Of a stretch of 64,000 bases of DNA, positions 1 through 62,942 are shown in pieces. Position numbers and translations under genes: made by a program. Numbering within the stretch: the stretch's first letter is position 1; every line of letters starts with the position of its first letter. The notes beneath the pieces are model-generated. The model made no database searches. It was not told the DNA's origin and saw only the letters and a list, made by a program, of their open reading frames with translations. The stretch is from a virus, in IMG/VR virus record IMGVR_UViG_3300045988_159685; one strand, 5' to 3'.

Positions 1-102
1 AGTTGCTTGCGCAGTTGCAGTTGAAGAGGCTATGAAGTAAGGTTTTAAGCCACTTTACGGATTTTGCAAGAAATTGTAAATTTACTTTTTATGTAAAAAA
101 AC

Positions 103-180: not shown

Positions 181-215
181 ACGTTAAAGACTAAAAAATT
201 ATTAAGTAAAAAGAA

Positions 216-241
216 GGCGTTAGATTAATTTATCTAACGCC
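216..241 (-). terminator. Hairpin terminator after integrase gene
   Basis: Perfect 10-bp stem GGCGTTAGAT / ATCTAACGCC with loop taattt, T/A-rich on both sides, directly downstream of the int stop codon. Confidence 0.6.
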
Positions 242-259
242 TTAATTTTTTATTAACAA

Positions 260-5499: not shown

Positions 5500-6150
5500 A
5501 CCGTATTGTTGACTAGCTGCCGACATTGTTACATCACTTATAACATCGAAGGCAACGTCAAGTGTCTTAGGCTCGTTATAATGAATATTACCCATTTCAA
5601 AGCCACCAGACAAAACATTTGCCATATCGAAAATACAACAGTTTATGCCGTCAAGTCTGTCTTTCTTATCATGAATATAGATATAACCGTCTCTAGCCGC
5701 CTGTCTTTCTTCAACATTCAAGAAGAATTTATCATACAGGTTCTTGTTTAACTCACCATAAATCAAACTGCGCTGTGTGCTAGTCATAGTAGAATCAGTG
5801 TTGGCATTTGAAACGTCGCCAATATAACGAATGCCCTGAGACTTGGTATATACATCGTCCATCATATGAACAAAGTCTTTTTTGTAATTTCTATACTGCC
5901 TATAACATTCACCTGATTTCGGGTAAAGGTCAAGCAAGGTGCGCTCGACTATTGCATGTATCGCCTCAACCGAAATACAATCATTTTCTAAATCTTCTTC
6001 CATTATGTAATCCATAACAGCAGAGCAAATTTTTTCATAATCTTTATCTGAAAGATTTTCCAATGCCCTGTTAGCTGATTTGCTACAGGCATTGATTATT
6101 TTTTGATAATCAAAATCTTCTAATGTTCCGTCCTTTTTTATTACTTTCAT
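5500..6150 (-). CDS. nrdD: NrdD exon 1 (ATP-cone and N-terminal domain)
   Basis: MKVIKKDGTLEDFDYQKI ATP-cone start. The in-frame stop lies 2 codons after the inferred 5' splice site. Confidence 0.85.
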
Positions 6151-26280: not shown

Positions 26281-26517
26281 TTATACACATTGTTCTAACC
26301 AATAAATTTTATTGAATTTCCAAAGTAATTTACATTTTCGTGCATTTACTTTCTTACAATGTTTTGTTTTAGATTGAAAATTCAAAGCTAATTGTTCTGG
26401 ATATAAAGCTGTAACATATCCTGTATGTGTTTCTCCATTTTTATATGTATATGAAACTAAATCTCTATGTCTAATTCCTAATACATTATCAGTTTTTGCT
26501 TTGGATTTTCTTCTCAT
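26281..26517 (-). CDS. Hypothetical small basic protein
   Basis: [35 protein letters not shown].. Overlaps the end of the LAGLIDADG ORF. Function not recognised. Confidence 0.35.
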
Positions 26518-27316
26518 TGGCTTTATTATCCATTTTGAATCGTTCTTTTTTTCTATGCAAAAACAAATCATTGTCTGTCATATCTTTATATATAAAATCG
26601 CCAAACTTGGACACTTCATCTTTCCTAGTAACATATAAAGAATGAGGAATGTCACTTTTACTATTTTTATGATTTGTTTGTACTATTGAATGAACTCTAA
26701 TATTATTTTGTTCCAAAATTTCTTTTAAAGATATTAAAAAATGCTTAGTTCCCATAATGTGAACACAATACCCATTTTTATCTACTGAACCATCTCCATC
26801 AAAATATCCTCTAATAAAATCATTCAAATATTGTTTAGAAATCCATAATGGAAATTCTAATGTCAAACTTTTTCTTTCCGTAAATCCTAAATTGATTAAA
26901 CTGTCATATATTTTTTGATTGCAGATATTTATGGAAACAGAAGTTTGATTTTCATATAATTTATGAGTTGATTTCATATCTAATAGAATGTTTTTCAATA
27001 AATATTTATCATCGTTTTTTATATGAATATTAAAACACTTATTTCCACCACTTGAACATATACAACCATCAGCACACCAAAATCCTAAAACATAAAACAT
27101 ATTTCTACTTTTTTCATTGAAATAATTTTCATTAATATTGTATTTTTTATTTGCAATACCATTACTAGCATATCTATCAATCTTTTTTATCCCCATTTCT
27201 TTTGCCTTACAATTAATAGCATCTCTGTTTCGATGAAATATTTCAACTAAATCATTAGTTGGATAATTAGGATATAACTCTTGTAATAATATTACTTCTT
27301 CCTTTGACCATTTCAT
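26489..27316 (-). CDS. LAGLIDADG homing endonuclease (double-motif) with N-terminal Myb/SANT-like HTH
   Basis: Two LAGLIDADG motifs, [11 protein letters not shown] and [12 protein letters not shown]-terminal [15 protein letters not shown]. Confidence 0.8.
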
Positions 27317-31477: not shown

Positions 31478-31640
31478 CATCCTCCCCCGACCTATAGAGG
31501 TCGGAGCTTCCTCCTGCAAGATTTGCAGGCAGTCGGTTCTCGTTCGAGCAGTCCATTGACTACAGCATAAGCGAGCTATCCCCGTGTGTCCCACGGTTCT
31601 ATTGGATTTGGCTATGCGAAAGCTATTCGCATGCCTTCAT
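31478..31640 (-). ncRNA. Putative TnpB omega (re)RNA scaffold at the element's right end
   Basis: The GC-rich, hairpin-dense segment overlapping and following the tnpB 3' end (CCGTGGGACACACGG, CTGCAAATCTTGCAG, CCGACCTCTATAGGTCGG on the minus strand) sits where omega RNAs are encoded. Confidence 0.55.
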
Positions 31641-32751
31641 TTCTAATGTTAATAGCGGCATTTACGTCTCTGTCGTGATGAGTACCACATTCAGGGCAAT
31701 CCCATTCACGGATAGACAGATCTTTTGTAGCATTGTTTTTGTAACCGCATACGCTGCAGGTCTGAGAGCTGGCAAAGAATTTATCTACTCGTATAAGTCT
31801 TTTACCCTGTTCTTCAAGCTTGTACTTTAAGAACGCAGTAAACATTCCCCAGCCATTATCAGATACAGATTTACCAAAGTGCAAAGATCTTGACATAGCT
31901 TTCATATTAAGACCTTCTATACATATACAATCATAGGCATTGGATATCTGTCTTGATAGTTTATGCAAGAAGTCTTTCCTTTGGCCAGCTACCTTTTCGT
32001 GCAGCTTGGCTACCTTTATACGCTGCTTGTTTCTATTACTTGAGCCTTTTTGCATATGAGATAGCTTACGTTGTTCTTTAGCAAGTTTCTTTTCTGCACT
32101 GCGATAATATCTTGGATAAGCAGGCTCATTACCGTTACTATCTTTGTACAGCTCGTGCATAGAATAATCAAGACCAAGAAAACTAAGCAATTCTTTGCTT
32201 TGTACTTGTTTTTCGTACTCGAAAAGAATGCTTACATAATACTTTCCTGCAGGTGTTTGTTTTACTGTTACATATTTAAGTATATAGCTGTCAGGTACCT
32301 TTCTATGCTGCTTTATCTTTACTTTACCCATCTTAGGAAGCTTTATATATCTATTAGATAGTTCTATATTTCCATTTACACAGTTTGTTGTGTAGCTGCG
32401 GTCGTTTTCTTTCTTAGACTTATACCTTGGATAACCGTTGCCCTGCAAAGTAAAGAAACTCTGAAAAGCCTCATCAAGGTGACGAAGAGCCTGCTGAAGA
32501 GCAATACTGTCCACTTCTTTCAGAAAAGAATATTCCTCGGCCTTTTTAATATCTGTAAGCTGTTGACTGCACTTATTATATGATACGCTTTCTTTGTTAT
32601 CAGTATATGCTGTTCTTCTTATATACAGCCAATGATTATATACCCACCTTACACAGCCAAATGTCTTTGTAAGAAGGGCTTTCTGCTCTGAAGATGGATA
32701 GATCCTAAATACATAGGCTTTATGACCAAGATCATCGTTCTTTTTAGGCAT
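31612..32751 (-). CDS. tnpB: TnpB (OrfB) RNA-guided nuclease, IS200/IS605 family
   Basis: AYVFRIYPSSEQKALLTKTFGCVRWVYN.., RuvC-like segments, SQTCSVCGYKN..WDCPECGTHHDRDVNAAINI zinc finger/RuvC III. ATG at 32751 follows AGGAGGTGG. Confidence 0.9.
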   Translation of the reverse strand: MPKKNDDLGHKAYVFRIYPSSEQKALLTKTFGCVRWVYNHWLYIRRTAYTDNKESVSYNKCSQQLTDIKKAEEYSFLKEVDSIALQQALRHLDEAFQSFFTLQGNGYPRYKSKKENDRSYTTNCVNGNIELSNRYIKLPKMGKVKIKQHRKVPDSYILKYVTVKQTPAGKYYVSILFEYEKQVQSKELLSFLGLDYSMHELYKDSNGNEPAYPRYYRSAEKKLAKEQRKLSHMQKGSSNRNKQRIKVAKLHEKVAGQRKDFLHKLSRQISNAYDCICIEGLNMKAMSRSLHFGKSVSDNGWGMFTAFLKYKLEEQGKRLIRVDKFFASSQTCSVCGYKNNATKDLSIREWDCPECGTHHDRDVNAAINIRNEGMRIAFA

Positions 32752-32872
32752 TCTTTGCCACCTCCTTATTATGATTATATCATTTTGAACTCTTTTTAGC
32801 AAACTTTAGAGACGCAATCCATCCCTCACCTATAGAGGTGAGGGTATTCTTGCTTCGGTTTGATAAAAGTTA

Positions 32873-34345: not shown

Positions 34346-35146
34346 TTATCTTGCCCTATTAATTCTCTGTCGGGCTACTGTAATAATATAATCAAAAGAC
34401 GGCATTGGTTTGAGTTTAAACTCATTTTTCTTATGAAGATTATCTATCTTCGACTTGATTTCTGCCTTGGGCAGAACCCCATATCGTATATATTTATCCA
34501 AAGTATCGTAACTAAATCCAAGGTTATCTTCATCCGTCTTCCCACACAAACCATCAGAAGGAGTTTTCTCAATAAATTTCTCAGGTAAACCAAGAAAGCG
34601 ACCTATTGATTTTACTTCTTGCACTGTAAACTTCGCAAGCGGTGCCATGTCCCCTGCTCCATCGCCATACCTTGTGGCATAACCAATATAATCCTCAGAA
34701 TAATTGCAAGTATTAATAACACGCCCACCGACTGTCTGCGATACAGCATAAAGTGTAGCCATACGCAAACGTGCTGGCAGATTTATTGTTGTTTGTTCAC
34801 TAAGGGTAGTCTCAAGGGCGTCACTGATTTTTGCTATAGCAGTATCATAAACTGATTCAATATTTATTGTTACATTATTAATACCGAGAAACTCGCAGAG
34901 TTCATTAGCATAGTTGATATCTGCCTGTTCTCCGTTTGGCATAAGCACGCCGAACACTCTTTCTTTACCAAGTGCTTTAACGCAGAGTGCTGCGACAACA
35001 GATGAGTCTTTTCCGCCAGATATTCCAATAACGGCTTTGCAACCATTTCCATTGTTCTCAAACCAATCTCTAATCCATTCAACACACATCTCTGCTGCCA
35101 CGTAAGAATTAAAATCCAGATTATAATTATCGTCATTATAACTCAT
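34346..35146 (-). CDS. nadE: NAD+ synthetase (NadE, ATP-pyrophosphatase family)
   Basis: PP-loop GISGGKDSSVVAALC; size and layout fit ammonia-dependent NadE. Confidence 0.85.
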   Translation of the reverse strand: MSYNDDNYNLDFNSYVAAEMCVEWIRDWFENNGNGCKAVIGISGGKDSSVVAALCVKALGKERVFGVLMPNGEQADINYANELCEFLGINNVTINIESVYDTAIAKISDALETTLSEQTTINLPARLRMATLYAVSQTVGGRVINTCNYSEDYIGYATRYGDGAGDMAPLAKFTVQEVKSIGRFLGLPEKFIEKTPSDGLCGKTDEDNLGFSYDTLDKYIRYGVLPKAEIKSKIDNLHKKNEFKLKPMPSFDYIITVARQRINRAR

Positions 35147-35164
35147 AAAAACACCTCGCTTAGA

Positions 35165-36643
35165 TTAGAAATTATTATTGTGGAGTCTGTTGCGGATATT
35201 AGCAAGTGAGTCATCAATAAGCAATTCGCTATTTCTGAATATTGCCTTTAACTCTTGTTTACTATTACAGGAAACTTCTTTCCAAGTATATTCGTCCTTA
35301 TAACAGAGCTCGCCGTTATCGTCTTTATAAACAAGACAACAACCCTTTTGTGATTTCTTAAATCCACCCTCTTTTGGATTTTTGAATATAGGATATGGCT
35401 TATGATCGATTTCACAGTATGTTGCCTTAATACAAGAACTAAAGGTATCTCTTGTAAATGGTTTAAGTATTCCATCTTCTTCTACGCACTGAAATGAAAA
35501 TGAGCCAACGCCAAGTGCAACATTGCTAGCCGCAAAGCCGTTATCCTTTAAAATTTCATATATCCTTTCACAACGCTGGATAGTAATTGAGTCACCATAA
35601 ATAGCCTTTACATGAGGGTCAAGAACTTTGTATCCCTTACTATTAATTGTGCCACCAAATTCATCCCAAAGTTTAAACACTGTTTTAGTTACAACTTCTA
35701 TGCAATCACCTGAATCGCCACGCATAAGCATGCAACCATTGTGCGCCATAATCTCTGGTTTTATTTGTGGCAAAACGTTATCAATGACATTCCAATAATC
35801 ATATGAATCAAGGACAGCAGAAAAACTTGTATCAGGATAAATCTCGGTCAATAATCTTTTAAGCAACGTAACTTCGTCACCATCAACCGCATAATTTGAA
35901 CACATAACTGCATGTTCGGTAGAGGGCGAACCAAATGCTACAGGCTCTTTGGTACAATCGCAATTATAAAGCTTTTCAAGATATGGTATGACAGGGACTG
36001 TTGCTGTATTTACAAAACTCAGACACCAACCAGCCGCCGCTTTAATAGCAGAATCCGTACATTCTTCACCTCTAAAGTCAAAAGAACCTAGAGCTTTGTT
36101 TCGTGACACACTATCATCACAGGTTTCATCGTAGAACTTATTTACGATATCACGATAAGTTGCACCCACCGTTGCGGCAAGCATTGGATGCCAAGCCTCG
36201 GCTGATATAAGCGATTCAAGAGCCTGCGGTAGCCATGCAAAATCGTCATGCGTATTAGTTATGCAAAACATCGGAACGTGCATTGGAACCTTTGTTCCTT
36301 CTGGTAATGCCCATATCTCAATTGGGAGATAGCCAAGGGCATGCAGGTCTTTTATTTTCTGCAAGCCATATACGCCCTTACCAAGTGAAGCATCCATAAT
36401 ACGCTCATATTCCGAAATGACTTCGTCTATAGGGCGTTCAAAAAATCTTTCATTAAAGTAATCTATCAAATAGGTTTTTACAAAGCCCTGAAGTCCGAAC
36501 ATCACGACTTTGTTCCACATCCTTACACGACTCATTCGTGGCGTAAAATATGAAACGGATTTTGTTATCTTAGTCGGCAACATCTCAGCATGAACCGCTT
36601 TATAAAAATCAATAAGTAGCATTGGGTTTATATTATATAACAT
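35165..36643 (-). CDS. Nicotinamide/nicotinate phosphoribosyltransferase-family protein (NAMPT/NadV-like; possible Namat)
   Basis: N-terminal NPMLLIDFYKAVHAEM. 492 aa, typical of the NAMPT/NAPRT fold family. Adjacent to a Prs-like gene. Confidence 0.8.
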   Translation of the reverse strand: MLYNINPMLLIDFYKAVHAEMLPTKITKSVSYFTPRMSRVRMWNKVVMFGLQGFVKTYLIDYFNERFFERPIDEVISEYERIMDASLGKGVYGLQKIKDLHALGYLPIEIWALPEGTKVPMHVPMFCITNTHDDFAWLPQALESLISAEAWHPMLAATVGATYRDIVNKFYDETCDDSVSRNKALGSFDFRGEECTDSAIKAAAGWCLSFVNTATVPVIPYLEKLYNCDCTKEPVAFGSPSTEHAVMCSNYAVDGDEVTLLKRLLTEIYPDTSFSAVLDSYDYWNVIDNVLPQIKPEIMAHNGCMLMRGDSGDCIEVVTKTVFKLWDEFGGTINSKGYKVLDPHVKAIYGDSITIQRCERIYEILKDNGFAASNVALGVGSFSFQCVEEDGILKPFTRDTFSSCIKATYCEIDHKPYPIFKNPKEGGFKKSQKGCCLVYKDDNGELCYKDEYTWKEVSCNSKQELKAIFRNSELLIDDSLANIRNRLHNNNF

Positions 36644-36660
36644 AACTTGTCACCTCCAAA

Positions 36661-37512
36661 TTAAAACATATCGAAAATCTCAATTTTGTCTGCGTTTACT
36701 TCAAGTCCATCGGCACCAATCTTCTTGCGGTAAATACTATTGGTAGAGAAAACCTTTTTGATAAGCCCGCTCTTAATCATGTCGCCGTCGTGTACCGAAT
36801 TTTCAAGATGTGAAACGTATAAATAAATGTCGCCAACACCATACTCTTTTAGAGCTTTTGCACTATAATAGAAAGTTCCGCCCCTAGAACAAATATCATC
36901 AACAATTAATACGTTTCTACCTTTTAATGTGTCTGTATTACCCATGATGCTTAATCCATTAATGGTTCCAGTTTTCCAATCCCTATTTTTCATACCGAAT
37001 ACATAAGGCACTTCAAGAATACTAGATATGAATGAATAACGTTTCATTGCGCCTTCGTCTGGGAAAAATAAAATAAGATCTTTCCTAGAAATCTTTTCGT
37101 CAATAATATTATCCCTCAAAATGCCAGCCGGTGAAGAATCTCTGATATTGTTTATTAGAGCCGCTCCAACGTTTGAATGAATGTCAAGTGTAAATACTTT
37201 TCTAAACTCCATATTATTGATTAGATTTGCAAATGTTTTGAGCGTAAACATTTCAAACGCTTTTTGTGTACGATCCATGCGAGCATTAGGAACATATGGC
37301 ATATTCAGATTAATGTTACAAAAGCCCTTGCTCTTTAACCAATCGACACAGCAAGCTAACTGAAATATCTCCGAATCATTGTCGTAAAGCCAAGTTATGT
37401 CTATAGGTGCTGAAACCCCATATCCAATGAGTTCCGCAATGCTATAGGTCAGTTTACACGTTCCATCAGGAAATTTAATAATATTAATTGGTTTAGAATC
37501 AATAGAAATCAT
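36661..37512 (-). CDS. Ribose-phosphate pyrophosphokinase-like protein (Prs-like; possible Adps)
   Basis: FTLDIHSNVGA (DxHS-type) and the PRPP-loop NVLIVDDICSRGGTF. Confidence 0.75.
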   Translation of the reverse strand: MISIDSKPINIIKFPDGTCKLTYSIAELIGYGVSAPIDITWLYDNDSEIFQLACCVDWLKSKGFCNINLNMPYVPNARMDRTQKAFEMFTLKTFANLINNMEFRKVFTLDIHSNVGAALINNIRDSSPAGILRDNIIDEKISRKDLILFFPDEGAMKRYSFISSILEVPYVFGMKNRDWKTGTINGLSIMGNTDTLKGRNVLIVDDICSRGGTFYYSAKALKEYGVGDIYLYVSHLENSVHDGDMIKSGLIKKVFSTNSIYRKKIGADGLEVNADKIEIFDMF

Positions 37513-37524
37513 AGAATCCTCCTA

Positions 37525-38049
37525 TTATATAATGTTAATTTGACAACTTTTTGCTACCGTTAAAGCCGCCTGCTTCGCTTCGGGTGTTGTGCCTGCTGTA
37601 GCATTTTCGATTATATTAATCTTCATTTCGGGAAACCGTGTTTTTAGAATTAAGGCATTTGTAATCACGCAGATATCAGTGCAAAGTCCAACCAAATCGA
37701 CTTCGTCGTAGTTATCCTCAACTAACTTAGTGGCAATATTAAATGTACCAAATGTCGGCTTATTAATAACATCACATGGTATATTGCTTTCAATAGAAGC
37801 GACAGCTATATCATCATGTATTTTCCAACCATTGGTGCCTCTTATACAATGTTCGATAGGTAAATTTTTGCCCTCCTGTGTATCAAGATAATCTTTGCTA
37901 TGGGTGTCTCGTGTAAAAAATATCGCCGCATAGTCGGAACTTTGTATAAGCTTTGCAACATTTGGAACAATAGCTTGGGCTTCCCTAGTTCCCAAACTGC
38001 CATTAATAAAATCATTCTGCATATCAATAACTATTAATGCTTTTTTCAT
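37525..38049 (-). CDS. pncA: Nicotinamidase / isochorismatase-family hydrolase
   Basis: ALIVIDMQNDF, TRDTH, LVGLCTDICV (catalytic Cys). Confidence 0.78.
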   Translation of the reverse strand: MKKALIVIDMQNDFINGSLGTREAQAIVPNVAKLIQSSDYAAIFFTRDTHSKDYLDTQEGKNLPIEHCIRGTNGWKIHDDIAVASIESNIPCDVINKPTFGTFNIATKLVEDNYDEVDLVGLCTDICVITNALILKTRFPEMKINIIENATAGTTPEAKQAALTVAKSCQINII

Positions 38050-38186
38050 ATGTAAACCTCTTTTCTCATTCACTTCATATAATATAAAATAAGTCCATCT
38101 AGGTGCTTACAAGGGTTTTCTTCTTGCCTTTAGCGGTACATTCGATCTTATATAGTTTTATCATTTTTTTATTTCTCCTAAAAAAA

Positions 38187-48085: not shown

Positions 48086-48160
48086 TGGTGACTCGTGCAG
48101 GAATTGCACCTACGATTCCATCCTGAGAAGATAGCGTCTTAACTACTTGACCAACGAGCC
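48086..48160 (-). tRNA. tRNA-Glu-like, anticodon CUC (copy A; atypical T-loop UGCAAUU)
   Basis: Minus strand: GGCTCGT TG GTC AAGTAGTTAA GAC G CTATC TTCTCAG GATGG AATC GTAGG TGCAATT CCTGC ACGAGTC A CCA. Same architecture as Firmicutes tRNA-Glu (3-bp D stem). Confidence 0.7.
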
Positions 48161-48243
48161 ATAAGCCCATAAGGGCTTTTTAATACTATGGGATTATTGG
48201 AGGTGAAGAACCATAGTATGTATCAGGAATTACCCTCGCGCTG

Positions 48244-48319
48244 TGGCTGGAGTGGCTGGACTCGAACCAGCGGAATGACGGAGTCAAAGTCCGTTGCCTT
48301 ACCTCTTGGCTACACTCCA
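48244..48319 (-). tRNA. tRNA-Gln (UUG)
   Basis: TGGAGTG TA GCC AAGAGGTAA GGC A ACGGA CTTTGAC TCCGT .. GCTGG TTCGAGT CCAGC CACTCCA G CCA. Close to Bacillus tRNA-Gln. Confidence 0.85.
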
Positions 48320-48345
48320 ATATAGCCCGTAAAAGCGGGCATTTT

Positions 48346-48618
48346 TTACAACTTTTTACCATCAAGGGTTTCGAACATATATTCCGTCCAAGCCCAACAC
48401 GTGATTTCATTCAACGTATATTCGCCTGTATCTCCATATCCTCTATCCTGAATCTCCGTTATACTGTGAATTTCTCCACAATATATATACATTGATGGGT
48501 TAAAACTTAAATATGAATTTTTGGGGCGTAATGGTTCATCTTCTTGATTGTTGTAACTATATTCGCAAAGCAGGTCTTTTTTACGCCTTATTCTGACTTC
48601 ATTGCCGATTTTTAGCAT
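48346..48618 (-). CDS. GDKVRIRRxKDLxCE family paralogue
   Basis: MLKIGNEVRIRRKKDLLCEY...EYMFETLDGKKL. ATG at 48618 follows GGAGGTG. Confidence 0.6.
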   Translation of the reverse strand: MLKIGNEVRIRRKKDLLCEYSYNNQEDEPLRPKNSYLSFNPSMYIYCGEIHSITEIQDRGYGDTGEYTLNEITCWAWTEYMFETLDGKKL

Positions 48619-49150
48619 TATGCACACCTCCAATTTTGTATGGAATCTGAGTTACTCCAAGTTTTTTTGCGGCAATGTATCTGGCATAGCCGTCTTTCAA
48701 AATTTTGTTGCCCTTAGCATCAAGCTTTATAGTTATGGGGTTATCGAAAATTCCATAATATTTATAGAAACAGATAGCCCTGTCCACCTTTTCTTTCTTT
48801 GGCGGATGATTCATAAAGTCTCTGGGTATGTACACTTTATCTACATCTATGAGCTTTTTGAAGTTGCTCATAAAAGCGGGGCGACTAATGTTTACAACTA
48901 TCGCATTTATAGTTGCTACGCCATCACGCTTGGAGATTTCGTAATCTCTTCGACCTGTAATCAAAGAATATGTATCACGGGAATTTCGCCGCACAATTAC
49001 AACGAGGTTGTCTTTTGTGCCGAGTTTTTCAGTGTCGATACTCTTCTTGTGTACACTATCTGTCAGCATGATGTTCCTAACTGGTATAGGAATCGCCTGC
49101 GCCGCCATTCTTGACCTGAAATTTTTTATATTGTTAAAACAGTACGCCAT
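48599..49150 (-). CDS. ParB/Sulfiredoxin-like nuclease-domain protein
   Basis: C-terminal KILKDGYARYIAAKKLGVTQIPYKI (DGxxR-type ParB N-domain motif). An N-terminal segment YSLITGRRDYEISKRDGVATINAIVV looks like a second copy. Confidence 0.55.
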   Translation of the reverse strand: MAYCFNNIKNFRSRMAAQAIPIPVRNIMLTDSVHKKSIDTEKLGTKDNLVVIVRRNSRDTYSLITGRRDYEISKRDGVATINAIVVNISRPAFMSNFKKLIDVDKVYIPRDFMNHPPKKEKVDRAICFYKYYGIFDNPITIKLDAKGNKILKDGYARYIAAKKLGVTQIPYKIGGVHNAKNRQ

Positions 49151-49179
49151 AATTTCTACCTCCTATTTTTTATAATGGC

Positions 49180-49255
49180 TGGTGTGCCATTCGGGATTTG
49201 AACCCGAGACCTTTCGATTAAAAGTCGAATGCTCTACCAATTGAGCTAATGGCAC
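49180..49255 (-). tRNA. tRNA-Lys (UUU), copy 1
   Basis: GTGCCAT TA GCTC AATTGGTA GAGC A TTCGA CTTTTAA TCGAA AGGTC TCGGG TTCAAAT CCCGA ATGGCAC A CCA. Confidence 0.88.
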
Positions 49256-49615
49256 ATAGACCGCCGTGGCGGTCAGCATTGTAACCCATGGTTACACAGA
49301 TTACAATTTAATTACAAAGTGGTGACATAATTCAATCGACCGTGTTACTTAAATGTAACTCGCAAGCTTTTTAGCTTGCATTTGAATAAAAAAAATAACG
49401 ACGGATTAACCAAAGTTGACCCGTCGTTAAATATATAAAATGGACACTTTTCAGCCTTGTGGATAACCTACGGTCAAGTTATGACGCACCTTAACCAAAC
49501 TCAAGGGTTTTGTAAAATCTTAATTGTTGTGCTTTAAGATTTAAGCTTTAGACGATTATAAGCTTTGAACTTTCGTAATTAAATTTTCAGCTTTATGCCT
49601 TAAGCTTTATCTTAT

Positions 49616-49657
49616 TACTCGTACAGGAATTGAACCTGTAATGCAACCAGTCGAGCA
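49616..49657 (-). other. tRNA-derived acceptor/T-arm minihelix-like fragment (no D or anticodon arm, no CCA)
   Basis: Minus strand: TGCTCG-ACTGGTTGCATT-ACAGG TTCAATT CCTGT-A-CGAGTA. The 3' half resembles the tRNA-Glu-like copies. Confidence 0.4.
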
Positions 49658-49819
49658 ACAAAACATTCCCACAAAAAAGGAATATCATATATCTTCGTAT
49701 AGACTACGATAGCTATTACTTATATTTGAGGCCAGATTTTTATTATTTTACTTTGTGAATATAGCCTAAAACACAAAGGTCATAAAATTAAAGGTTTTCA
49801 AAAAGCACCCATTTTTTGC

Positions 49820-50461
49820 TTAGTACGAAATTTCGATTTCGGTTATAGCGTTCGATACGCTGATAGCCGAGTCAAAATCAATCTTAAACTTGTCTATACG
49901 ATCGACAAGGTCAGAAATGATTTCGGCAGTGTCAAAACCCTCGATAATTTCAAAAGTGTTCGCCTTTATGAAATTGGTTTTCGCCTCCTCTATTTCCTTT
50001 GTAACAGCTTTACCGTCTTTTGAACCAAACATTCCAAGTACATACTCATCGGCACGCCCCTGTAATGTTTCGCCGTTCTCATAATTACATCTGTCCTGTG
50101 CAGCTTTAAGCTGTTTAGACATATGCTTCAAAAGATCTTCCTCAAATTCAATGCCGTGATTCTTATACTCTATAGCCTCGGCAATAGTCAGTTTCATACC
50201 CTGTATTGTGACTTCGGTCTCGGCATTTGAAAGCGTAACGGCACGCTTAATTGCCTTACGCCTTTTTATAAGGTCGGCTATTTTGTCATAGCTCGCCTTG
50301 AAGCCATTCTTAGCTTCTTCAATAGAGACGCCATTTATCTTTGTGTTGCTATGTTTGTTCTCAACCACAAATTTTGCATCTTTGATAAGGGCGGGTATCC
50401 TCTTATCGAGAATCTTAAGCTCACAAAGTGCCTGATGAATCGTCATTTTTTCGTTAGTCAT
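49820..50461 (-). CDS. Hypothetical protein (213 aa, helical)
   Basis: Clean ORF between tRNA-like elements. Confidence 0.55.
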   Translation of the reverse strand: MTNEKMTIHQALCELKILDKRIPALIKDAKFVVENKHSNTKINGVSIEEAKNGFKASYDKIADLIKRRKAIKRAVTLSNAETEVTIQGMKLTIAEAIEYKNHGIEFEEDLLKHMSKQLKAAQDRCNYENGETLQGRADEYVLGMFGSKDGKAVTKEIEEAKTNFIKANTFEIIEGFDTAEIISDLVDRIDKFKIDFDSAISVSNAITEIEISY

Positions 50462-50515
50462 TTCAAAAACTCCTTTGAATTTTAAAATTTACAGACCTGA
50501 TTATGCCTGTATTGA

Positions 50516-50575
50516 TGGTGGCTCACACAGGATTTACACCTGTACTCTCACTGGGGATAAGAGTCTATTTGAGCC
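50516..50575 (-). pseudogene. 60-nt truncated tRNA-like element ending in CCA (D arm absent)
   Basis: GGCTCAA ATAG ACTCTTA TCCCCAG TGAGAGT ACAGG TGTAAAT CCTGT GTGAGCC A CCA. The acceptor pairs at 6 of 7 positions. The loop has C at position 33. Confidence 0.45.
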
Positions 50576-50628
50576 ATAGCGATGCAAAGCATCGCACTCA
50601 GAAAAAGAAGGGAATGCCCAAAACGGGC

Positions 50629-50704
50629 TGGTGACTCACGCAGGATTTGAACCATGCAATTCCGCCCTGAGAAGGCGGCGTCTTAACCGTTTGACCAGTG
50701 AGCC
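50629..50704 (-). tRNA. tRNA-Glu-like, anticodon CUC (copy B; one unpaired base in the T stem)
   Basis: GGCTCAC TG GTC AAACGGTTAA GAC G CCGCC TTCTCAG GGCGG AATT GCA(T)GG TTCAAAT CCTGC GTGAGTC A CCA. Confidence 0.6.
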
Positions 50705-50728
50705 ATAAGGCGGAGAACTCCGCCTATA

Positions 50729-51673
50729 TTACTTTTCTTTAAAGGTTGGCGAACAGCTCTCAAAGAATTCTTTTACGTTGACATTGTATTTCTCAAGAAT
50801 CGCAACGATAACTTTTTGTACCTTGTCCCATTCGTCATCTTTGATATACTGAATATACGGTGTCTTGCGATTGCCACGCTTTTTGAGGTCAATCCCGTAG
50901 CGATAACTAAGCTGCTTATATAGCATACTGAAAGCCACGCCGAAACTGATATGCAAAGTCGAAGCAAACTTACGCATAACTCTGTTGAACATTTTGCGGT
51001 CTGAAATATGTAAGACCTCGGCTGTTAAAAGCTTGTTTGACGTTTCAATTCTGTCGATATGACGCCGCTGAAACGCCGTGTAAGCCTGGGCGGCTGTCGC
51101 AAATTCCATGATATCACCCGTGGCAAAAGCCTTGCCGATTGCCGCTTGGAGCTTTTCTTCGTCGTCGATATCTTGCGTGAGAAGTTCGGGCTTTTCCTCG
51201 GCGGTGTGTTCGACAATGTTTAGGAGCTGTGTCCTGACCTCTTGGGCTATCTTGCTATCACGAAGAAGCATGCCTATTCTGAGGATGGCACGCTTTGAGA
51301 AACACTTGATGCCTCGGTTTGGGATTTCAAGGTGGGTATTATCGTCGATTTGGATAACAAGTTTGCCGTTTTGTTGCTCAAAATTCTTAAAGGTACAACT
51401 TGTACCTTTAAGAATTTCTTTAAAGATTGTAGGCGTTTTAGTTGCAACGCCATCACCCTCAATCTCAGTGCGGTTTCGCTGACAACAACGCTTTATAGTA
51501 TCAATATCAACCTCATAATAATCCGCCACCTGCCTAATAGTCATACAGTTCATCTCAGGTATCAAAAGCAGCTTCTTAACCTTATCAAGAACCTCAGTTC
51601 TGGCAATAAGCTCGTTTCTGAGGTCATGGTTGTCTACCATGCTTTCGCTCGTGATGATTTTACTTTCTGGCAT
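50729..51673 (-). CDS. HTH DNA-binding regulatory protein (phage antirepressor/Rha-like layout)
   Basis: N-terminal MTIRQVADYYEVDIDTIKRCCQRNRTEI HTH. The C-terminal helical domain resembles phage regulatory/antirepressor C-domains. Its own palindromic motif recurs upstream. Confidence 0.5.
   Translation of the reverse strand: MPESKIITSESMVDNHDLRNELIARTEVLDKVKKLLLIPEMNCMTIRQVADYYEVDIDTIKRCCQRNRTEIEGDGVATKTPTIFKEILKGTSCTFKNFEQQNGKLVIQIDDNTHLEIPNRGIKCFSKRAILRIGMLLRDSKIAQEVRTQLLNIVEHTAEEKPELLTQDIDDEEKLQAAIGKAFATGDIMEFATAAQAYTAFQRRHIDRIETSNKLLTAEVLHISDRKMFNRVMRKFASTLHISFGVAFSMLYKQLSYRYGIDLKKRGNRKTPYIQYIKDDEWDKVQKVIVAILEKYNVNVKEFFESCSPTFKEK
51381..51417. promoter_or_regulatory. 37-bp perfect palindrome (operator-like O1) inside the HTH gene
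   Basis: AAATTCTTAAAGGTACAA-C-TTGTACCTTTAAGAATTT. Confidence 0.7.
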
Positions 51674-51729
51674 AATTTCACCTCCTCTTGTAAAACAAAT
51701 TGAACATCTTGCTTAGTTAGTAACCTAAA

Positions 51730-51760
51730 TTCTTAACGGAACAAGTTGTTCCTTTAAGAA
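51730..51760. promoter_or_regulatory. Operator-like palindrome O2 upstream of the HTH gene
   Basis: TTCTTAACGGAACA-AGT-TGTTCCTTTAAGAA, one mismatch from perfect symmetry and the same consensus as O1. Confidence 0.65.
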
Positions 51761-51775
51761 ATATCCATCTTTAAT

Positions 51776-51798
51776 GGGATAAGTTGTTCCTTTAAAAG
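51776..51798. promoter_or_regulatory. Degenerate operator-like site O3 (good right half only)
   Basis: GGGATA-AGT-TGTTCCTTTAAAAG. Confidence 0.4.
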
Positions 51799-51842
51799 CA
51801 CTTGAATAGAGTTTAGACTTTTTTGCTATAATGCCATTTGAA

Positions 51843-51867
51843 CTAACGGAACATCTTGTTCCTTTAG
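51843..51867. promoter_or_regulatory. Operator-like palindrome O4
   Basis: CTAACGGAACA-TCT-TGTTCCTTTAG. Confidence 0.6.
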
Positions 51868-52074
51868 TAATTTTTAAAGATATTAAACTTACCTCTGCCT
51901 AACATTTAAGACTTATAATAACCGCAATCACCGTTATAATCAGATTAAGCAGTGCGCCGATCCACAGTGGTGATACCACCCAAAGCCAACTCCAGCATAT
52001 AACTTTAGTCAGTTTCAGTATGATAAATACGATAGTAAGCAGTCCGCAAAAACCAATTCCGCCGCTCTTCATAA

Positions 52075-52308
52075 TTATTCTCCCTCCCTTACAATATGAA
52101 ATTTATCCACGCCGTAAATAACGCCAAGTGAGCGCCCATTGTCAAAATTGCAATGAATCGTACCAGCGTCATCGACATGATCAACCGTTCCAAGCGTATT
52201 CGGCTCAACTGGGTATGGATCATCAACCATTTTCTCAAGGCATATTCTTGTACCCTCGGGGAAAACTCTTTTGAGCCAAGATATCCTCTTGTCATTGTAT
52301 AAACTCAT
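52075..52308 (-). CDS. DUF4314-like protein
   Basis: FPEGTRICLEKMVDDPYPVEPNTLGTVDHVDDAGTIHCNFDNGRSLGV matches the remembered DUF4314 pattern (G..v.l..M.Dp.p...G..GtV..vDd.GtihV.wDnG..L). Confidence 0.55.
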   Translation of the reverse strand: MSLYNDKRISWLKRVFPEGTRICLEKMVDDPYPVEPNTLGTVDHVDDAGTIHCNFDNGRSLGVIYGVDKFHIVREGE

Positions 52309-52646
52309 ACCTTGCCTCTTTCAAACTCAATAACACCGCCATCGGCATCAACGACAACTGGGCGAATTGATAGGATATTTCTTGTGAATAAAAACGCACA
52401 GGCTAATGGCACGGCAATAACCGCACTCTCGGGCATAGCTATAGCCATAACGCCCATAGCAAAGCCGAGAACTTTCTGCATAATCCACAACACTTTGGCT
52501 GCTTTTCTTTCAAGTCTGCGGCTTTTATAGCTTTCTATGCGCTTTTTAAGCTCTCTTTCTTCTTTGTCACGTTCTTCTGCGTGTTTCATAGATCTGATTA
52601 ACTTTGTCAGGTCGTATGTATTATGTACGTTTTCAAAAGCGTCCAT
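52305..52646 (-). CDS. Hypothetical membrane protein
   Basis: Charged helical N-terminus, then two TM helices. Confidence 0.5.
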   Translation of the reverse strand: MDAFENVHNTYDLTKLIRSMKHAEERDKEERELKKRIESYKSRRLERKAAKVLWIMQKVLGFAMGVMAIAMPESAVIAVPLACAFLFTRNILSIRPVVVDADGGVIEFERGKV

Positions 52647-52719
52647 AAAAACACCTCCATTTTAAAATAATAATAATGATTTTCTGATTACGCCTGAAAA
52701 TCACCATAAAATCTGGCGT

Positions 52720-52795
52720 TGGTGCGACTTATGGGGCTTGAACCCATGACCTCCGCATTAAAAGTGCGTTGCTCTACTAACTGAGCTAAAGCCGC
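52720..52795 (-). tRNA. tRNA-Lys (UUU), copy 2 (sequence-divergent from copy 1)
   Basis: GCGGCTT TA GCTC AGTTAGTA GAGC A ACGCA CTTTTAA TGCGG AGGTC ATGGG TTCAAGC CCCAT AAGTCGC A CCA. Confidence 0.85.
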
Positions 52796-52888
52796 AAGCG
52801 CAGGCATCACACTACATTCCCATATGGTGGGATAAGCACTGTACCTGCTATGCCAATTTTCTTTTTGTGTAGCATTGGCAAACTACAC

Positions 52889-52975
52889 TGGTGCCGCTGA
52901 CGAGACTTGAACTCGTAAGGATTTTACTCCGAGGGTTTTTAAGACCCTTGTGTATGCCTATTCCACCACAGCGGC
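52889..52975 (-). tRNA. tRNA-Leu (UAA), type II with long variable arm
   Basis: GCCGCTG TG GTGGAATAGGCATACAC A AGGGT CTTAAAA ACCCT (long variable arm) ACGAG TTCAAGT CTCGT CAGCGGC A CCA. Confidence 0.85.
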
Positions 52976-53085
52976 TTGTCTTGCCCACAACCCACAGAAG
53001 GCAAGTAATGTACGGCTCATCCGTACTTCCCTACGTATTCAGCGACTGATGCCACCGATGCGCGTCTAAGGACTGCGACGTCCTT

Positions 53086-53160
53086 TGGTGACTCGTGCAG
53101 GATTCAAACCTACGACTCCGCTCTGAGAAAGCGGTATCTTAATCACTTGACCAACGAGCC
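53086..53160 (-). tRNA. tRNA-Glu-like, anticodon CUC (copy C; T-loop UUUGAAU)
   Basis: GGCTCGT TG GTC AAGTGATTAA GAT A CCGCT TTCTCAG AGCGG AGTC GTAGG TTTGAAT CCTGC ACGAGTC A CCA. Confidence 0.7.
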
Positions 53161-53458
53161 ATAAGGCGGCTTTTGACCGCCTACTGAATAAAAAGAAAGG
53201 AATTTTAAATCAATGCTAATATCTAACTTATGTAACCCTCTACACGAGGGCTGGCACAATAAGCATAATTCACCACCTCCGTTCCTACTCATACCAGCCG
53301 AGCCCAATATTTCAATATCACCTAAGCCTTGCAATAAACCGCAGTAATAGACTTTTAGCGGGTTATGCCGTACTTAGACGCCGCAAATTATTTAACGTGG
53401 CTTGCGGTTACCACTTACTCAAATGAGCATATCAACTACCTCTTTTCAAAAAAACTTG

Positions 53459-56603: not shown

Positions 56604-56632
56604 TTGACATTTAGCCAAAAATGGTGTATAAT
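56604..56632 (+). promoter_or_regulatory. Consensus sigma-A-type promoter for the small recombinase gene
   Basis: TTGACA - 17 nt - TATAAT, about 50 nt upstream of the AAAGGAG RBS and the ATG at 56685. Confidence 0.75.
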
Positions 56633-56684: not shown

Positions 56685-57473
56685 ATGAGACATTACAAAA
56701 TCAAGCACGCCCAGCAGGTATTCAGTGGTTCGACCGCCCCAAAACTTAAGTGCAACGTTATCGACATTGGCGACGCTGTAAAACCAAAGCGACCCGAAAT
56801 TGAGAAGCGTCCACGCAACAATTCACCGTACACCTCACATGGCAAACCCAAGGCAACCCCTGGCGATCCAATTCGAGACATGGCGGATATTCAAAAGGCA
56901 AAAGAGTTCTTGCTCAACAACGGTAAGACTAGACGCATCAGACTTCGTAACTACATGTTCTTCACCCTTGGCATTTCAACGGGACTCCGTGGTGGCGACT
57001 TAGTTAAAATCAAGATTGGCGATGTGATTACTGAGGGCGGTAGATTTAAAAGCTATATCAGCTTGTTCGAGGAAAAGACCTCTAAACACAACAATCCAAA
57101 GCTTAATTCATCATGCCGTGAAGCAATCAAGACATATCTCGACTACATCGGCGACTACTCCCTTGAAGACTATCTGTTCAAATCCGAGAAAGGCGGTTGT
57201 CTTGACCAATCACAAATCTATAGAATCATTCATTCGCTTCAAACCGACCTTGGGCTACCATACCACTTGAGCGCACATAGCCTCAGAAAGACCTTTGGCT
57301 ACTGGACAATAAAGATGCACCCCGACGATTCAAGAGCTCTTGTGACACTCCAGAGAATGTTAAATCACGATTCACCCGAGACTACACTGATTTACTGCGG
57401 AATAACTCAAGACGACAAAGACGCATTCTACGATGACATGGATACACTGTTCGATGAGGCTACAACCATATAA
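56685..57473 (+). CDS. Small tyrosine recombinase (XerC/D- or invertase-sized, 262 aa)
   Basis: GLRGGDLVKIKIGDV (Arg I), HSLRKTFGYW (HxxR), LNHDSPETTLIYCG (H...Y). Confidence 0.85.
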   Translation: MRHYKIKHAQQVFSGSTAPKLKCNVIDIGDAVKPKRPEIEKRPRNNSPYTSHGKPKATPGDPIRDMADIQKAKEFLLNNGKTRRIRLRNYMFFTLGISTGLRGGDLVKIKIGDVITEGGRFKSYISLFEEKTSKHNNPKLNSSCREAIKTYLDYIGDYSLEDYLFKSEKGGCLDQSQIYRIIHSLQTDLGLPYHLSAHSLRKTFGYWTIKMHPDDSRALVTLQRMLNHDSPETTLIYCGITQDDKDAFYDDMDTLFDEATTI

Positions 57474-58044: not shown

Positions 58045-60768
58045 ATGGCATTAAACAAATTATACTATGTGTACGGACTTGATACTGCGTGCCTTTATAC
58101 ACCAGAGGAAAGTGCTATTGAACAAAAAATTATCAAGGCACGTTGCCTTCGAGCTACGCTCAAAGACAGAATTGCCAAACAAAAGATAACCCCTTGTCTT
58201 TGTAAAGGTAAAAAAACTATAGCAAACAAAGACAACAAAGCCCCATACGTTGGAAAACATCAGAAGCGTCTGCGTTTTCTCAACGATTACATAGCCAGTC
58301 ATAAAGCATTACTTAAGCAGGAGCTTGCCAAAAATGTATCACTCACACGAACCGTGATACCTGACAAGCTCAATATACGTCGCCAGATTTCAATATTTGG
58401 CTCTTCCCTTACAAGATATTTCAACCTAAAGGAAAGAGAGCTTAATGAAGAAATCGTGATTGTAAAAGTTTACTTCTTCGATGTCGCCAAGAGCATTGTG
58501 AAGAACGGCTTTTACATGAATGGTCACAAATACGTTTTCTTCTCAAGTAGTGCGGGGCAAATCAGAACCAAAAAGCTCGTGGCCGTTCGTGAAGATTTAC
58601 TCAACAAGTATTGGAACGCATTGACGGCAGGCTTGACAATTGAAAAGATTAATGAGCAAGGCGGCATGAATGTAAATAAATTTCTTGCCTACCTTGCTCT
58701 TTGTAATTCAGCTACTGATTTATGGTGTGACTTCAACATTGACGAGTGTATTGTAGTTGACGACTTTGAAACGCTTGTGCATGGTACGGTTGACTTTATA
58801 GACGATAAGACCTATAGGATTGAAAGACAAGAAATGAATATACCGATCACGCACACCGATGGCTGTGGAATGATACTTCCAGAACTGAGTACAAAAAATT
58901 TCATGACAAGATTGCCATGGGTCAAAGGTCTGCTAGCAAGTTTTGACTTTGTGAAGTTTATCAAGGATAATAATTGCGACCCCGTGATTACTGACGTCTA
59001 CGGCGATAAGCATAATATCCTTGAGGAAAATATCAAAATCATATTTACCAAGAGTCAGTTCAAAATGTGGAAATATTATTCAAACTGGGGTGAATATAAA
59101 AACAACTTCAAGAAATATGGAAGCACCGCAGGCAAGTGTAACATAGAAGAAGGATATATCCCATATGCAACGATCAACTACCAAATGATACAGACACTAA
59201 TTGATACCACTGACAATGAGATAGCCGCACTTGCTCGTAAGAGCATGAACGATATTCGCAATCTCGCAACCGATAAAGCAACAATGCTCAAGGTTTTCGG
59301 AGCTACAAGCTACAACAAAAATATGAACGGCTTTCAAAAATGTCTTAAGTTATATCCCGAGCTTTTATCAGACCCATATTCTCGTGCCGCCCTTAAAGAC
59401 ATCAAACATAGCCTTGAGACAGATCAGTGGGCGGCCAAATTCAAAACAAGCGGTAAATACACGTTTGTTGTTCCAGACCTTTATGCGTTCTGTGAATATT
59501 TATTCTTACATATATCAAATCCTAAAGGACTTTTAAGCAACGGTGAAGTAAGTTGCAAACTGTTCAAAGATAATATTGAGCTTGATTGTTTACGTTCGCC
59601 GCACCTCTACATCGAACATGCCATAAGAACAAATCGTCATGTTGACAGTTGGTTTAATACAGATGCAATCTATACAAGTTGTGCCGACTGTATATCGAAA
59701 GTTTTGCAGTTCGACAACGACGGTGATAAACTATTGGTGATTCCAGATGAAACACTAATAAACCTTGCTAAACGAAACTTGCAAAAGTATGACATAGTAC
59801 CGCTCTTCTATAACATGGCTAAGGCGGGGGCAAAAGAACTTACTCCCGATAGCCTGTATGATGGATTAATATGTGCCTACACTGGTGGCAATATTGGCGA
59901 AATAAGCAACGCCATTACCAAGGTTTGGAATAGCGGAGTAATCGACCAAGAAAAAATCAATGTTGTTAAATGGCTTTGTATGGAAAATAACTTCGTCATA
60001 GACTACGCCAAGACCTTGTATAAACCCGTTCGTCCTGATTGGGTAAACGAAATTATTTCTAAGCACGTCAAGAGCAGAGTTCCACATTTCTTTCAATATG
60101 CTAAAGGCAAAGAAACCAATCAAGTAGAAGAAAGAGGTTTAAACACGGTTGACAGAATTAAGTCGTTGACCCCTATACAAAAGCTTAACTTTAATTTTAA
60201 GAACGACAATGTTGGAAAGTTTGATTATAGATTTCTGCTAAAAAACAAAGAAATTGAAGTCGATGAGAATGTGCTTCAACGCTTTAGGGATATATCAAGC
60301 AATCTAAGGTTTTGTGACTCAGATGGAACGGCACTTAACTACCAAGCCGTATACGATCAAGCGAAAGAAGAAATGCTTATGCTCGGTCATAACATTGACG
60401 ATGTTGTAGATATGCTTGTAGAGGATTTATTTCACAGTAGACGTGTTGAAAAGAAAAAAGCATTTTGGGAAATGTTTGGCGAAGTTGTGTACGAACATTT
60501 GTCGAACAATTTATCACAAAATTATATCCAGTGTGCTCACTGTCAGAAAAGATTTTATCGTGAAAACTCGAAACAAATTTACTGCAACAAATGTCAAAAC
60601 AAGAAGTCCATCAAAGCAAATACCAAGATTCTTCAATGTGCAGGTTGCGGCAAAACCATAACAGTAAGTACAAGATGTCATCGTGAAGCCTACTGCCCTG
60701 AGTGTAAAATTCATGCAAGAAATGCGGCAAGACTGAGGGCGTATTATAAAAATAAGCATCTTGTGTAG
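58045..60768 (+). CDS. YonO-like single-subunit two-barrel RNA polymerase candidate (RdRP-related family) with C-terminal zinc ribbons
   Basis: 907 aa. YVFFSSSAGQIRTKKL (RdRP/YonO-type SxxQxR block), LRSPHLYIEH, QFDNDGDKLLVIPD (DxDGD metal loop). C-terminal CAHC..CNKC..CAGC..CPEC. An HU gene lies nearby, as with yonN-yonO in SPbeta. Confidence 0.55.
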   Translation: MALNKLYYVYGLDTACLYTPEESAIEQKIIKARCLRATLKDRIAKQKITPCLCKGKKTIANKDNKAPYVGKHQKRLRFLNDYIASHKALLKQELAKNVSLTRTVIPDKLNIRRQISIFGSSLTRYFNLKERELNEEIVIVKVYFFDVAKSIVKNGFYMNGHKYVFFSSSAGQIRTKKLVAVREDLLNKYWNALTAGLTIEKINEQGGMNVNKFLAYLALCNSATDLWCDFNIDECIVVDDFETLVHGTVDFIDDKTYRIERQEMNIPITHTDGCGMILPELSTKNFMTRLPWVKGLLASFDFVKFIKDNNCDPVITDVYGDKHNILEENIKIIFTKSQFKMWKYYSNWGEYKNNFKKYGSTAGKCNIEEGYIPYATINYQMIQTLIDTTDNEIAALARKSMNDIRNLATDKATMLKVFGATSYNKNMNGFQKCLKLYPELLSDPYSRAALKDIKHSLETDQWAAKFKTSGKYTFVVPDLYAFCEYLFLHISNPKGLLSNGEVSCKLFKDNIELDCLRSPHLYIEHAIRTNRHVDSWFNTDAIYTSCADCISKVLQFDNDGDKLLVIPDETLINLAKRNLQKYDIVPLFYNMAKAGAKELTPDSLYDGLICAYTGGNIGEISNAITKVWNSGVIDQEKINVVKWLCMENNFVIDYAKTLYKPVRPDWVNEIISKHVKSRVPHFFQYAKGKETNQVEERGLNTVDRIKSLTPIQKLNFNFKNDNVGKFDYRFLLKNKEIEVDENVLQRFRDISSNLRFCDSDGTALNYQAVYDQAKEEMLMLGHNIDDVVDMLVEDLFHSRRVEKKKAFWEMFGEVVYEHLSNNLSQNYIQCAHCQKRFYRENSKQIYCNKCQNKKSIKANTKILQCAGCGKTITVSTRCHREAYCPECKIHARNAARLRAYYKNKHLV

Positions 60769-62791: not shown

Positions 62792-62866
62792 TTATAGCAT
62801 ATTCAAATCTCCTTTTCAGTGTCTTAATATTGACAGATAGAGGACGGCAATAGTCGTCCTTTACAT

Positions 62867-62942
62867 TGCGGAGTAGAGAAAAGGTATCTCGCTTGTTTCA
62901 TAGGCAAGAGATTATTGGTTCGAGTCCAATCTCACGCAACCA
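62867..62942 (+). tRNA. tRNA-Met(CAU)-like gene with a bulged acceptor stem (possible pseudogene or att-associated copy)
   Basis: TGCGGAG TA GAGA AAAGGTA TCTC G CTTGT TTCATAG GCAAG AGATT ATTGG TTCGAGT CCAAT CTC(A)CGCA A CCA. D, anticodon and T arms fold. The acceptor needs one bulged A. Confidence 0.45.

Follow-up and report, generated by a model that had tools for sequence, protein, structure and literature searches.

What does a temperate phage gain from three divergent tRNA-Glu genes that share the single anticodon CUC? The question is raised by IMG/VR record IMGVR_UViG_3300045988_159685, a stretch of 64,000 nt (hereafter the window; coordinates refer to the whole stretch, position 1 being its first letter) corresponding to the leftmost 64 kb of a large SPbeta-like prophage integrated in Ruminococcus bicirculans, a bacterium of the human gut. 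The three genes, here termed copies A, B and C, lie on the minus strand between 48086 and 53160, within a prophage island of eight tRNAs. We consider it probable (roughly 0.6) that the trio is a dosage set of functional GAG decoders for virion production, carrying compensated swaps of tertiary base pairs.

A prediction made earlier from the letters of the window (the original prediction) had described three tRNA-Glu(CUC) genes with an identical UUCUCAG anticodon loop, and these were recovered by ARAGORN, by the Rfam covariance model RF00005 and by direct reading. Structures were read from the reverse complements and from covariance-model alignments. In all copies the anticodon loop is U32-U33-C34-U35-C36-A37-G38, the D stem has 3 bp (G10-U11-C12), the variable region has 4 nt and the CCA end is encoded; the copies are 78-85% identical to one another and all score above the RF00005 gathering score of 29 bits (Table 1). 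The pairs G19:C56 and G18:U55 are near-universal in the elbow of tRNAs. Copy B has both, together with an extra U that bulges out between positions 51 and 52, on the 5' side of the T stem. Copies A and C do not: copy A has the D loop AAGUAGUUAA (A18 G19) and the T loop UGCAAUU (U54-G55-C56), and copy C the D loop AAGUGAUUAA (G18 A19) and the T loop UUUGAAU (U54-U55-U56). The T-loop changes in A and C and the extra T-stem base in B had all been predicted and are indeed in the sequence. Two further features had been overlooked, namely that G55 of copy A comes together with A18, and that the Levitt pair covaries, being G15:C48 in copies A and C and A15:U48 in copy B.

To weigh these exchanges, base pairs of the cloverleaf and three tertiary pairs were counted over an alignment of phage and cellular sequences, in which 98.9% of the pair cells are standard pairs and none of 500 shuffles reached the observed values. 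Pair 15:48 is G:C in 24 rows and A:U in 4, copy B included. The A19:U56 covariation suspected in copy C holds, as pair 19:56 is G:C in 26 rows and A:U in 2, both of them copy C, so that Watson-Crick pairing is preserved. Pair 18:55 is G:U in 22 rows, G:C in 1 and A:G in the 5 rows of copy A; A18:G55 is not a standard pair. In related phages (L-numbers are our labels for related or matching contigs compared with the window) every tRNA with G55 also has A18, namely tRNA-Ser(UGA) in L148 (15702-15787) and L149 (14853-14938) and tRNA-Tyr(GUA) in L179 (9260-9345) and L147 (14364-14446), and a tRNA-Tyr with U56 in L201 (11283-11369) probably has A19. The swap from G:U to A:G at 18:55 has thus arisen repeatedly in this phage family. 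Such compensation shows selection for the tertiary fold, not the cause of the first change. Several tRNAs of related phages also have A54, some of them with U58.

The trio was then set against chromosomal genes. A scan for the D-arm and loop pattern, covering one representative genome per bacterial species, returned 102 chromosomal tRNA-Glu(CUC) genes at 89 loci with exactly UUCUCAG, carried by Leuconostoc, Weissella, Fructobacillus, Lacticaseibacillus, some Enterococcus and Streptococcaceae and a few Clostridia (Lachnoclostridium, Clostridiales); no Ruminococcus locus was among them. The loop had been taken for a deviant form of CUUUCAC, which is wrong: in Bacillota the CUC isoacceptor normally has this loop. 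The cellular genes further have in common with the phage copies the D arm (GGUCAA..UUAAGAY), the 3-bp D stem with U11-A24, the 4-nt variable region and the 72-nt body, while they differ in mostly having no encoded CCA and in a first acceptor pair that is G:U or U:G, and the phage copies are just 75-80% identical to any cellular gene. Because the loop is the same as in these 102 genes, there is no evidence for the suggestion that it evades anticodon nucleases, and this explanation was rejected on a comparison made with other Bacillota and not with the host's own gene.

An isotype covariance model, R1, was built from 22 of the cellular tRNA-Glu(CUC) genes alone. It scored the phage copies at 75.9-78.6 bits and the next-best tRNA of the window, tRNA-Gln, at 39.7 bits; the cellular set was retrieved with a phage-derived pattern, so in this comparison independent evidence comes from the acceptor, anticodon and T stems and not from the D arm and loop. 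Under the general Rfam model the cellular genes reach 54-67 bits and the phage copies, at 49-54, are slightly lower. Among columns invariant in the 22 cellular genes, the Glu-type features (3-bp D stem, U11-A24, A13/A22, 4-nt variable region without position 47) are present in all three copies, and every invariant column is kept except G18 (A18 in copy A) and G19 and C56 (A19 and U56 in copy C); G55 of copy A occupies a near-invariant column. The three copies thus have the fold and body of a Bacillota-type tRNA-Glu(CUC). The elbow deviations described in the original prediction are real and specific to the phage, since the D-loop GG is found in 63 of 63 unique cellular tRNA sequences and a UUCRA T loop in 61 of 63. 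The isoacceptor itself is not confined to this element, tRNA-Glu(CUC) being present in other phages of the same broad family.

Neither ARAGORN nor Rfam nor the Glu-specific model run with filters off detected a tRNA-Glu(UUC) in the window, and none turned up in the next ~18 kb of near-identical contigs; the stretch covered runs from the left end of the prophage to ~82 kb. The original prediction had called three CUC copies without a UUC copy odd. This stands insofar as no UUC gene was found and the Glu tRNAs read the minority codon of the bulk phage genes; it does not stand for the CUC anticodon, which is in itself not abnormal.

A viral-contig scan recovered these three paralogs from ~14 related contigs with unchanged gene order (Glu-Leu-Lys ... 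Glu ... Lys-Gln-Glu), so their occurrence is not a matter of chance. Measured between the window and these contigs, the mismatch rate is 0.0056 for copy A, 0.0038 for copy B and 0.0078 for copy C, compared with 0.011-0.046 for the other four tRNAs of the seven between 48086 and 53160, 0.059 for intergenic DNA and 0.09-0.27 for third codon positions of neighbouring open reading frames (ORFs). The few substitutions in the stems of orthologs keep the pairing (U:G to C:G, G:U to A:U, C:G to U:G). Nothing else in the island is as constrained as the three Glu genes, whose unusual elbow nucleotides are conserved as well, and this strong conservation indicates that the genes are under purifying selection and functional; the reading as pseudogenes, which the original prediction had named as a possible refutation, is ruled out on these evolutionary grounds. 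In two relatives (L008 9885-9960, L015 2241-2316) copy B has C32 for U32, giving the loop CUCUCAG, the sole anticodon-loop change among ~40 orthologs.

The island also holds two decayed relatives of the trio, both detected weakly by R1 (Table 1). The first lies immediately downstream of copy B; acceptor stem, T arm and ACCA are retained, the D arm is gone, the loop is mutated to UCCCCAG and the mismatch rate is 0.033. The second consists of acceptor stem and T arm only, is missing or partial in some relatives and has a mismatch rate of 0.093. In each copy the 3' acceptor strand is GAGUC and leads into ACCA, and a hairpin with UUAU after it lies upstream of the gene. The trio arose by repeated duplication within the phage lineage, with a birth-and-death history that argues for selection on dosage. 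Divergence of roughly 20% among the copies may in addition keep direct repeats 2.5 kb apart from recombining and deleting the genes between them.

Which codons such a dosage would serve was approached through codon counts. Clusters of phage tRNAs, as in T4, T5, mycobacteriophages and large siphophages of Bacillota, are read as codon compensation or tuning of late genes. In the phage genes of the window against the host flank (2,980 codons), GAA/GAG counts are 801/390 against 99/96, AAA/AAG 995/519 against 90/129 and CAA/CAG 249/206 against 10/56, and TTA is used 19 against 2.7 times per 1000 codons. Relative to the host flank, the phage uses the codons of tRNA-Lys(UUU), tRNA-Gln(UUG) and tRNA-Leu(UAA) 1.9 to 7 times more often, and these three tRNAs therefore fit classical codon compensation. 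Glu(CUC) does not: GAG makes up 33% of Glu codons in bulk phage genes (GAA 67%) and 49% in the host flank. Bulk codon compensation was thus rejected for Glu, GAG use being moreover uniform along the window and the Glu anticodon not tracking GAG in relatives.

A different picture is given by three putative virion genes (scaffold/decoration, major capsid and major tail), labelled from gene order alone (terminase, portal, ..., 164 aa, 331 aa, ..., 270 aa, chaperones, tape measure). Together they have GAG 34 : GAA 12, AAG 43 : AAA 10, CAG 21 : CAA 0 and zero TTA, whereas fifteen other late genes have GAG 125 : GAA 315 (Fisher p = 2e-9). These putative virion genes thus use host-like G-ending codons, which the rest of the AT-rich phage does not. 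In a related clade with an orthologous Asn-Glu-Tyr-Met array, the capsid gene of the member with Glu(CUC) has GAG 18 : GAA 3, and those of members with Glu(UUC) have GAG:GAA of 10:10 and 7:13. Such a pattern points to a possible co-adaptation between the phage Glu tRNA and the most highly expressed genes.

Taken together, the copies are three functional phage isodecoders of an ordinary Bacillota-type tRNA-Glu(CUC), whose likely role is to raise the supply of GAG-decoding Glu-tRNA, mattering most for GAG-rich, very highly expressed virion genes. The changes from G19:C56 to A19:U56 in copy C and from G18:U55 to A18:G55 in copy A are compensated swaps that would keep the L-shape, and the T-stem bulge of copy B would be tolerated. 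We infer that the genes are expressed, that their products are charged by glutamyl-tRNA synthetase (GluRS), that late-gene translation benefits and that divergence acts against recombination.

Several points weigh against this explanation. With a phage GAG share below that of the host, simple compensation predicts a UUC tRNA and not CUC, and across relatives bulk GAG use does not follow the Glu anticodon. The capsid-gene comparison amounts to four loci of one clade, and the names "major capsid" and "major tail" come from gene order. The virion genes are equally biased to AAG and CAG, yet the phage has neither Lys(CUU) nor Gln(CUG). The chromosomal genes compared include none of Ruminococcus.

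Among the other explanations, the one that survives best, although we judge it unlikely, is counter-defence: Glu isodecoders that resist a tRNA-cleaving immune nuclease by means of changes at the elbow and T arm (G55 in copy A, U56 in copy C, the bulge in copy B) and not in the anticodon loop. Replacement of cleaved host tRNAs by phage tRNAs is established (van den Berg et al. 2023, PMC10264068), and further cases are T5 tRNA-Lys against PARIS (PMC11464382) and T5 tRNA-Tyr against Retron-Eco7 (PMC11555353). As in those systems, the phage copies differ from cellular tRNAs at conserved positions; there the anticodon loop or stem is altered, whereas here the loop is that of 102 cellular genes and the T arm and elbow are changed. 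A T-loop nuclease has in fact been described. CbCash, a type III CRISPR-associated Schlafen nuclease, cuts the T loop 5' of U55 at a UUC motif, and single mutations of U54 or U55 abolish cleavage (PMC13462974). Copy A is without U55 and copy C without C56, so evasion at the T loop is conceivable by analogy. Each copy deviates in a different way and every deviation is conserved, and the prophage has another likely counter-defence module, the NAD+ salvage cluster of Table 1.

Against counter-defence, Lys1, Lys2, Gln, Leu and copy B all keep the canonical UUC in the T loop, and a broad T-loop nuclease would therefore still halt translation. The CUC set cannot read GAA, 67% of the Glu codons of the phage, and thus would not rescue a cell depleted of Glu-tRNA; no UUC copy was found between the left end of the prophage and ~82 kb. 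T-loop variants at positions 54-56 do occur in 18 of 206 unique tRNAs of the phage family, but they do not significantly exceed the small bacterial baseline (2 of 63). For this host no cognate nuclease is known, and no defence or anti-defence protein was recognised beside the tRNAs, where PADLOC gave only a weak PDC-M59A match (50729-51673) and Pfam and PHROGs were uninformative. That A18:G55, A19:U56, the T-stem bulge and the recurrent A18:G55 of relatives might be adaptive escapes from immune tRNases cutting at U54-U55-C56, Schlafen- or Cash-type enzymes for example, is a doubtful proposition. If true, it would add a second route of tRNA-based counter-defence, at the T loop instead of the anticodon loop, in which compensating D-loop changes restore the L-shape and three differently altered Glu isodecoders hedge against several nucleases.

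Still less favoured, and in our view improbable, is that the lysogen is the beneficiary, with tRNAs expressed from the prophage providing GAG decoding to a host that is without, low in or has lost tRNA-Glu(CUC). The element is an integrated prophage with host DNA beyond its integrase, GAG is 49% of Glu codons in the host flank, the Glu genes are the most conserved features of the island, and a tRNA-dependent lysogeny is documented in mycobacteriophages, as described in the available part of that report (PMC10865867). In lysogeny of that type a host tRNA of the same isotype is disrupted; here, on the contrary, no tRNA or tRNA fragment was found with Rfam or the Glu-specific model at the integrase-proximal junction (window 1-259 plus the host flank in L215), a result that concerns that junction only. 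No convincing promoter of individual tRNAs, and no strong sigma-70-like one adjoining them, was detected (the best minus-strand promoter is at 56057-56029). It is very improbable that the copies are non-translational or non-functional elements (pseudogenes, processing signals in polycistronic transcripts or tRNA-like decoys), for which the non-canonical elbows, the hairpins 2-7 nt upstream of tRNAs, which fit transcript punctuation, and the two true remnants in the same island might speak, but which is at odds with a mismatch rate 10 to 30 times below that of neutral sites, with a constraint that spans the anticodon loop and all stems and so exceeds RNase P/RNase Z determinants, with the faster evolution of the real remnants and with an intact Glu identity architecture and encoded CCA.

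Read as a dosage set for GAG, the locus is a clean case of three same-anticodon isodecoders under strong purifying selection that read a codon favoured by virion genes and not by the genome at large. Like the tRNA clusters of T4, T5, mycobacteriophages and large Bacillota siphophages, it consists of several tRNAs among early-region ORFs; it differs from them in having three isodecoders of one anticodon that reads the minority Glu codon of bulk genes. Clear precedents exist for phage tRNAs, for this isoacceptor and its loop, and for its occurrence in a phage, and the odd elbows are a structural curiosity, not a new kind of system. Even so, natural, conserved and compensated swaps of G19:C56 and G18:U55 are material for tRNA structural biology, and the altered positions are those required by a T-loop-cleaving immune nuclease, which makes the counter-defence hypothesis testable.

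Table 1. Features of the tRNA island and of its prophage. Positions are in the window unless a contig is named; scores are in bits (Rfam, model RF00005; R1, model of cellular tRNA-Glu(CUC)); hairpins are given with distance from the tRNA 5' end, folding energy and z.
Feature	Position	Strand	Evidence or remark
Arm-type tyrosine integrase	260-1465	-	last phage gene before host DNA
NAD+ salvage cluster: NadE (NAD synthase), NAMPT, Prs-like (PRPP-synthetase-like) protein, isochorismatase-family (nicotinamidase-like) protein	34346-38073	-	
tRNA-Glu(CUC) copy A	48086..48160	-	ARAGORN; Rfam 49.1; R1 77.0
Hairpin upstream of copy A	48163..48178	-	GC-rich; 2 nt; -10.0 kcal/mol; z -3.8
tRNA-Gln(UUG)	48244..48319	-	ARAGORN; Rfam 62.9
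tRNA-Lys(UUU) copy 1	49180..49255	-	ARAGORN; Rfam 78.5
tRNA-Glu-like remnant 2	49615..49657	-	R1 16.9; E 0.0035
Decayed tRNA-Glu-like remnant 1	50518..50577	-	R1 13.4; E 0.05; fold
tRNA-Glu(CUC) copy B	50629..50704	-	ARAGORN; Rfam 53.4, T-stem insert; R1 75.9
Hairpin upstream of copy B	50708..50725	-	3 nt; -11.8 kcal/mol; z -2.8
tRNA-Lys(UUU) copy 2	52720..52795	-	ARAGORN; Rfam 68.3
tRNA-Leu(UAA)	52889..52975	-	ARAGORN; Rfam 55.4
tRNA-Glu(CUC) copy C	53086..53160	-	ARAGORN; Rfam 53.7; R1 78.6
Hairpin upstream of copy C	53164..53182	-	3 nt; -11.5 kcal/mol; z -3.3
YonO-like RNA polymerase, 907 aa, eukaryotic-type RNA-dependent RNA polymerase (RdRP) fold (PF05183)	58045-60768	+	cluster of 901 members in public data
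Eighth tRNA, anticodon CAU, loop UUCAUAG, CCA encoded	62867-62942	+	Rfam 48.8; not called by ARAGORN
Putative scaffold/decoration gene	L219 9483-9977		gene order
Putative major capsid gene	L219 10001-10996		gene order
Putative major tail gene	L219 14667-15479		gene order

ARAGORN called the seven minus-strand tRNA genes within 48086-53160, and Rfam confirmed all seven and added the eighth on the plus strand. The latter, a candidate tRNA-Met, tRNA-fMet or tRNA-Ile2, has a bulged A in the 3' strand of its acceptor stem, and the gene is conserved in relatives. Copy 2 of tRNA-Lys has A18 in the window (D loop AGUUAGUA) with a canonical U55; its orthologs all have G18, making this an uncompensated singleton. 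Most of the eight tRNAs are preceded, 2-7 nt upstream, by a GC-rich hairpin without a U tract, the others beyond those of Table 1 lying at 48325-48340, 49259-49274 and ~62841-62860; Lys2 and Leu are preceded by weaker folds (z -1.6 and -0.6). The hairpins suggest that the tRNAs punctuate polycistronic transcripts, and after RNase P cleavage the hairpin could protect the 3' end of the upstream mRNA.

The assignment to an integrated prophage follows from the phage gene order, which ends at the integrase, and from the host genes beyond it. The prophage-host junction lies in window 1-1465 (L215 11207-21206); window 1-259 has repeated GTCCAC(GAAA) motifs, past which come the host genes GGGtGRT, GlgB, TetR, YfhO and others. 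Near-identical proteins, located on contigs of 0.3-0.7 Mb, carry Ruminococcus bicirculans names in NCBI, and the window matches exactly a human gut contig of 364,959 bp. The prophage is widespread in human gut metagenomes. A near-identity search of 50,697 deposited phage records gave no close relative, the matches being only of the size of the tRNA-Gln.

With SPbeta-like large temperate phages the prophage has in common a DnaE-type polymerase (53% identical to DnaE of Clostridioides phage pCD1602_4, the nearest isolate), YopX, an integrase and the RdRP-fold RNA polymerase of family PF05183, which resembles YonO of SPbeta; it differs from them by its host. Other genes encode a primase, DnaB, a Sak annealing protein, Dam methylases and a split NrdD. 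The NAD+ salvage cluster looks like a counter-measure to NAD-depleting defence systems. A second integrase-family gene (262 aa, 56685-57473) stands behind a perfect TTGACA-17-TATAAT promoter at 56604-56632. NrdD is broken up by insertions, where a relative has an HNH gene, and the replication module is heavily invaded by mobile elements (regions 2838-6150, 26489-27316 and 31612-32802), among them also a free-standing LAGLIDADG gene and an insertion sequence (IS)-type transposase (phrog_506).

More distant relatives have genomes of 130-200 kb and carry different tRNA sets at the same places. Their tRNAs include Glu(UUC), or Glu(CUC) with the loop CUCUCAA, and the elbow of these Glu tRNAs is always canonical. 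In related phages, Rfam also matches FuFi-1, drum and DUF3800-XI RNAs beside tRNA genes (L163 13738-13907 and 15023-15130; L203 6430-6477).

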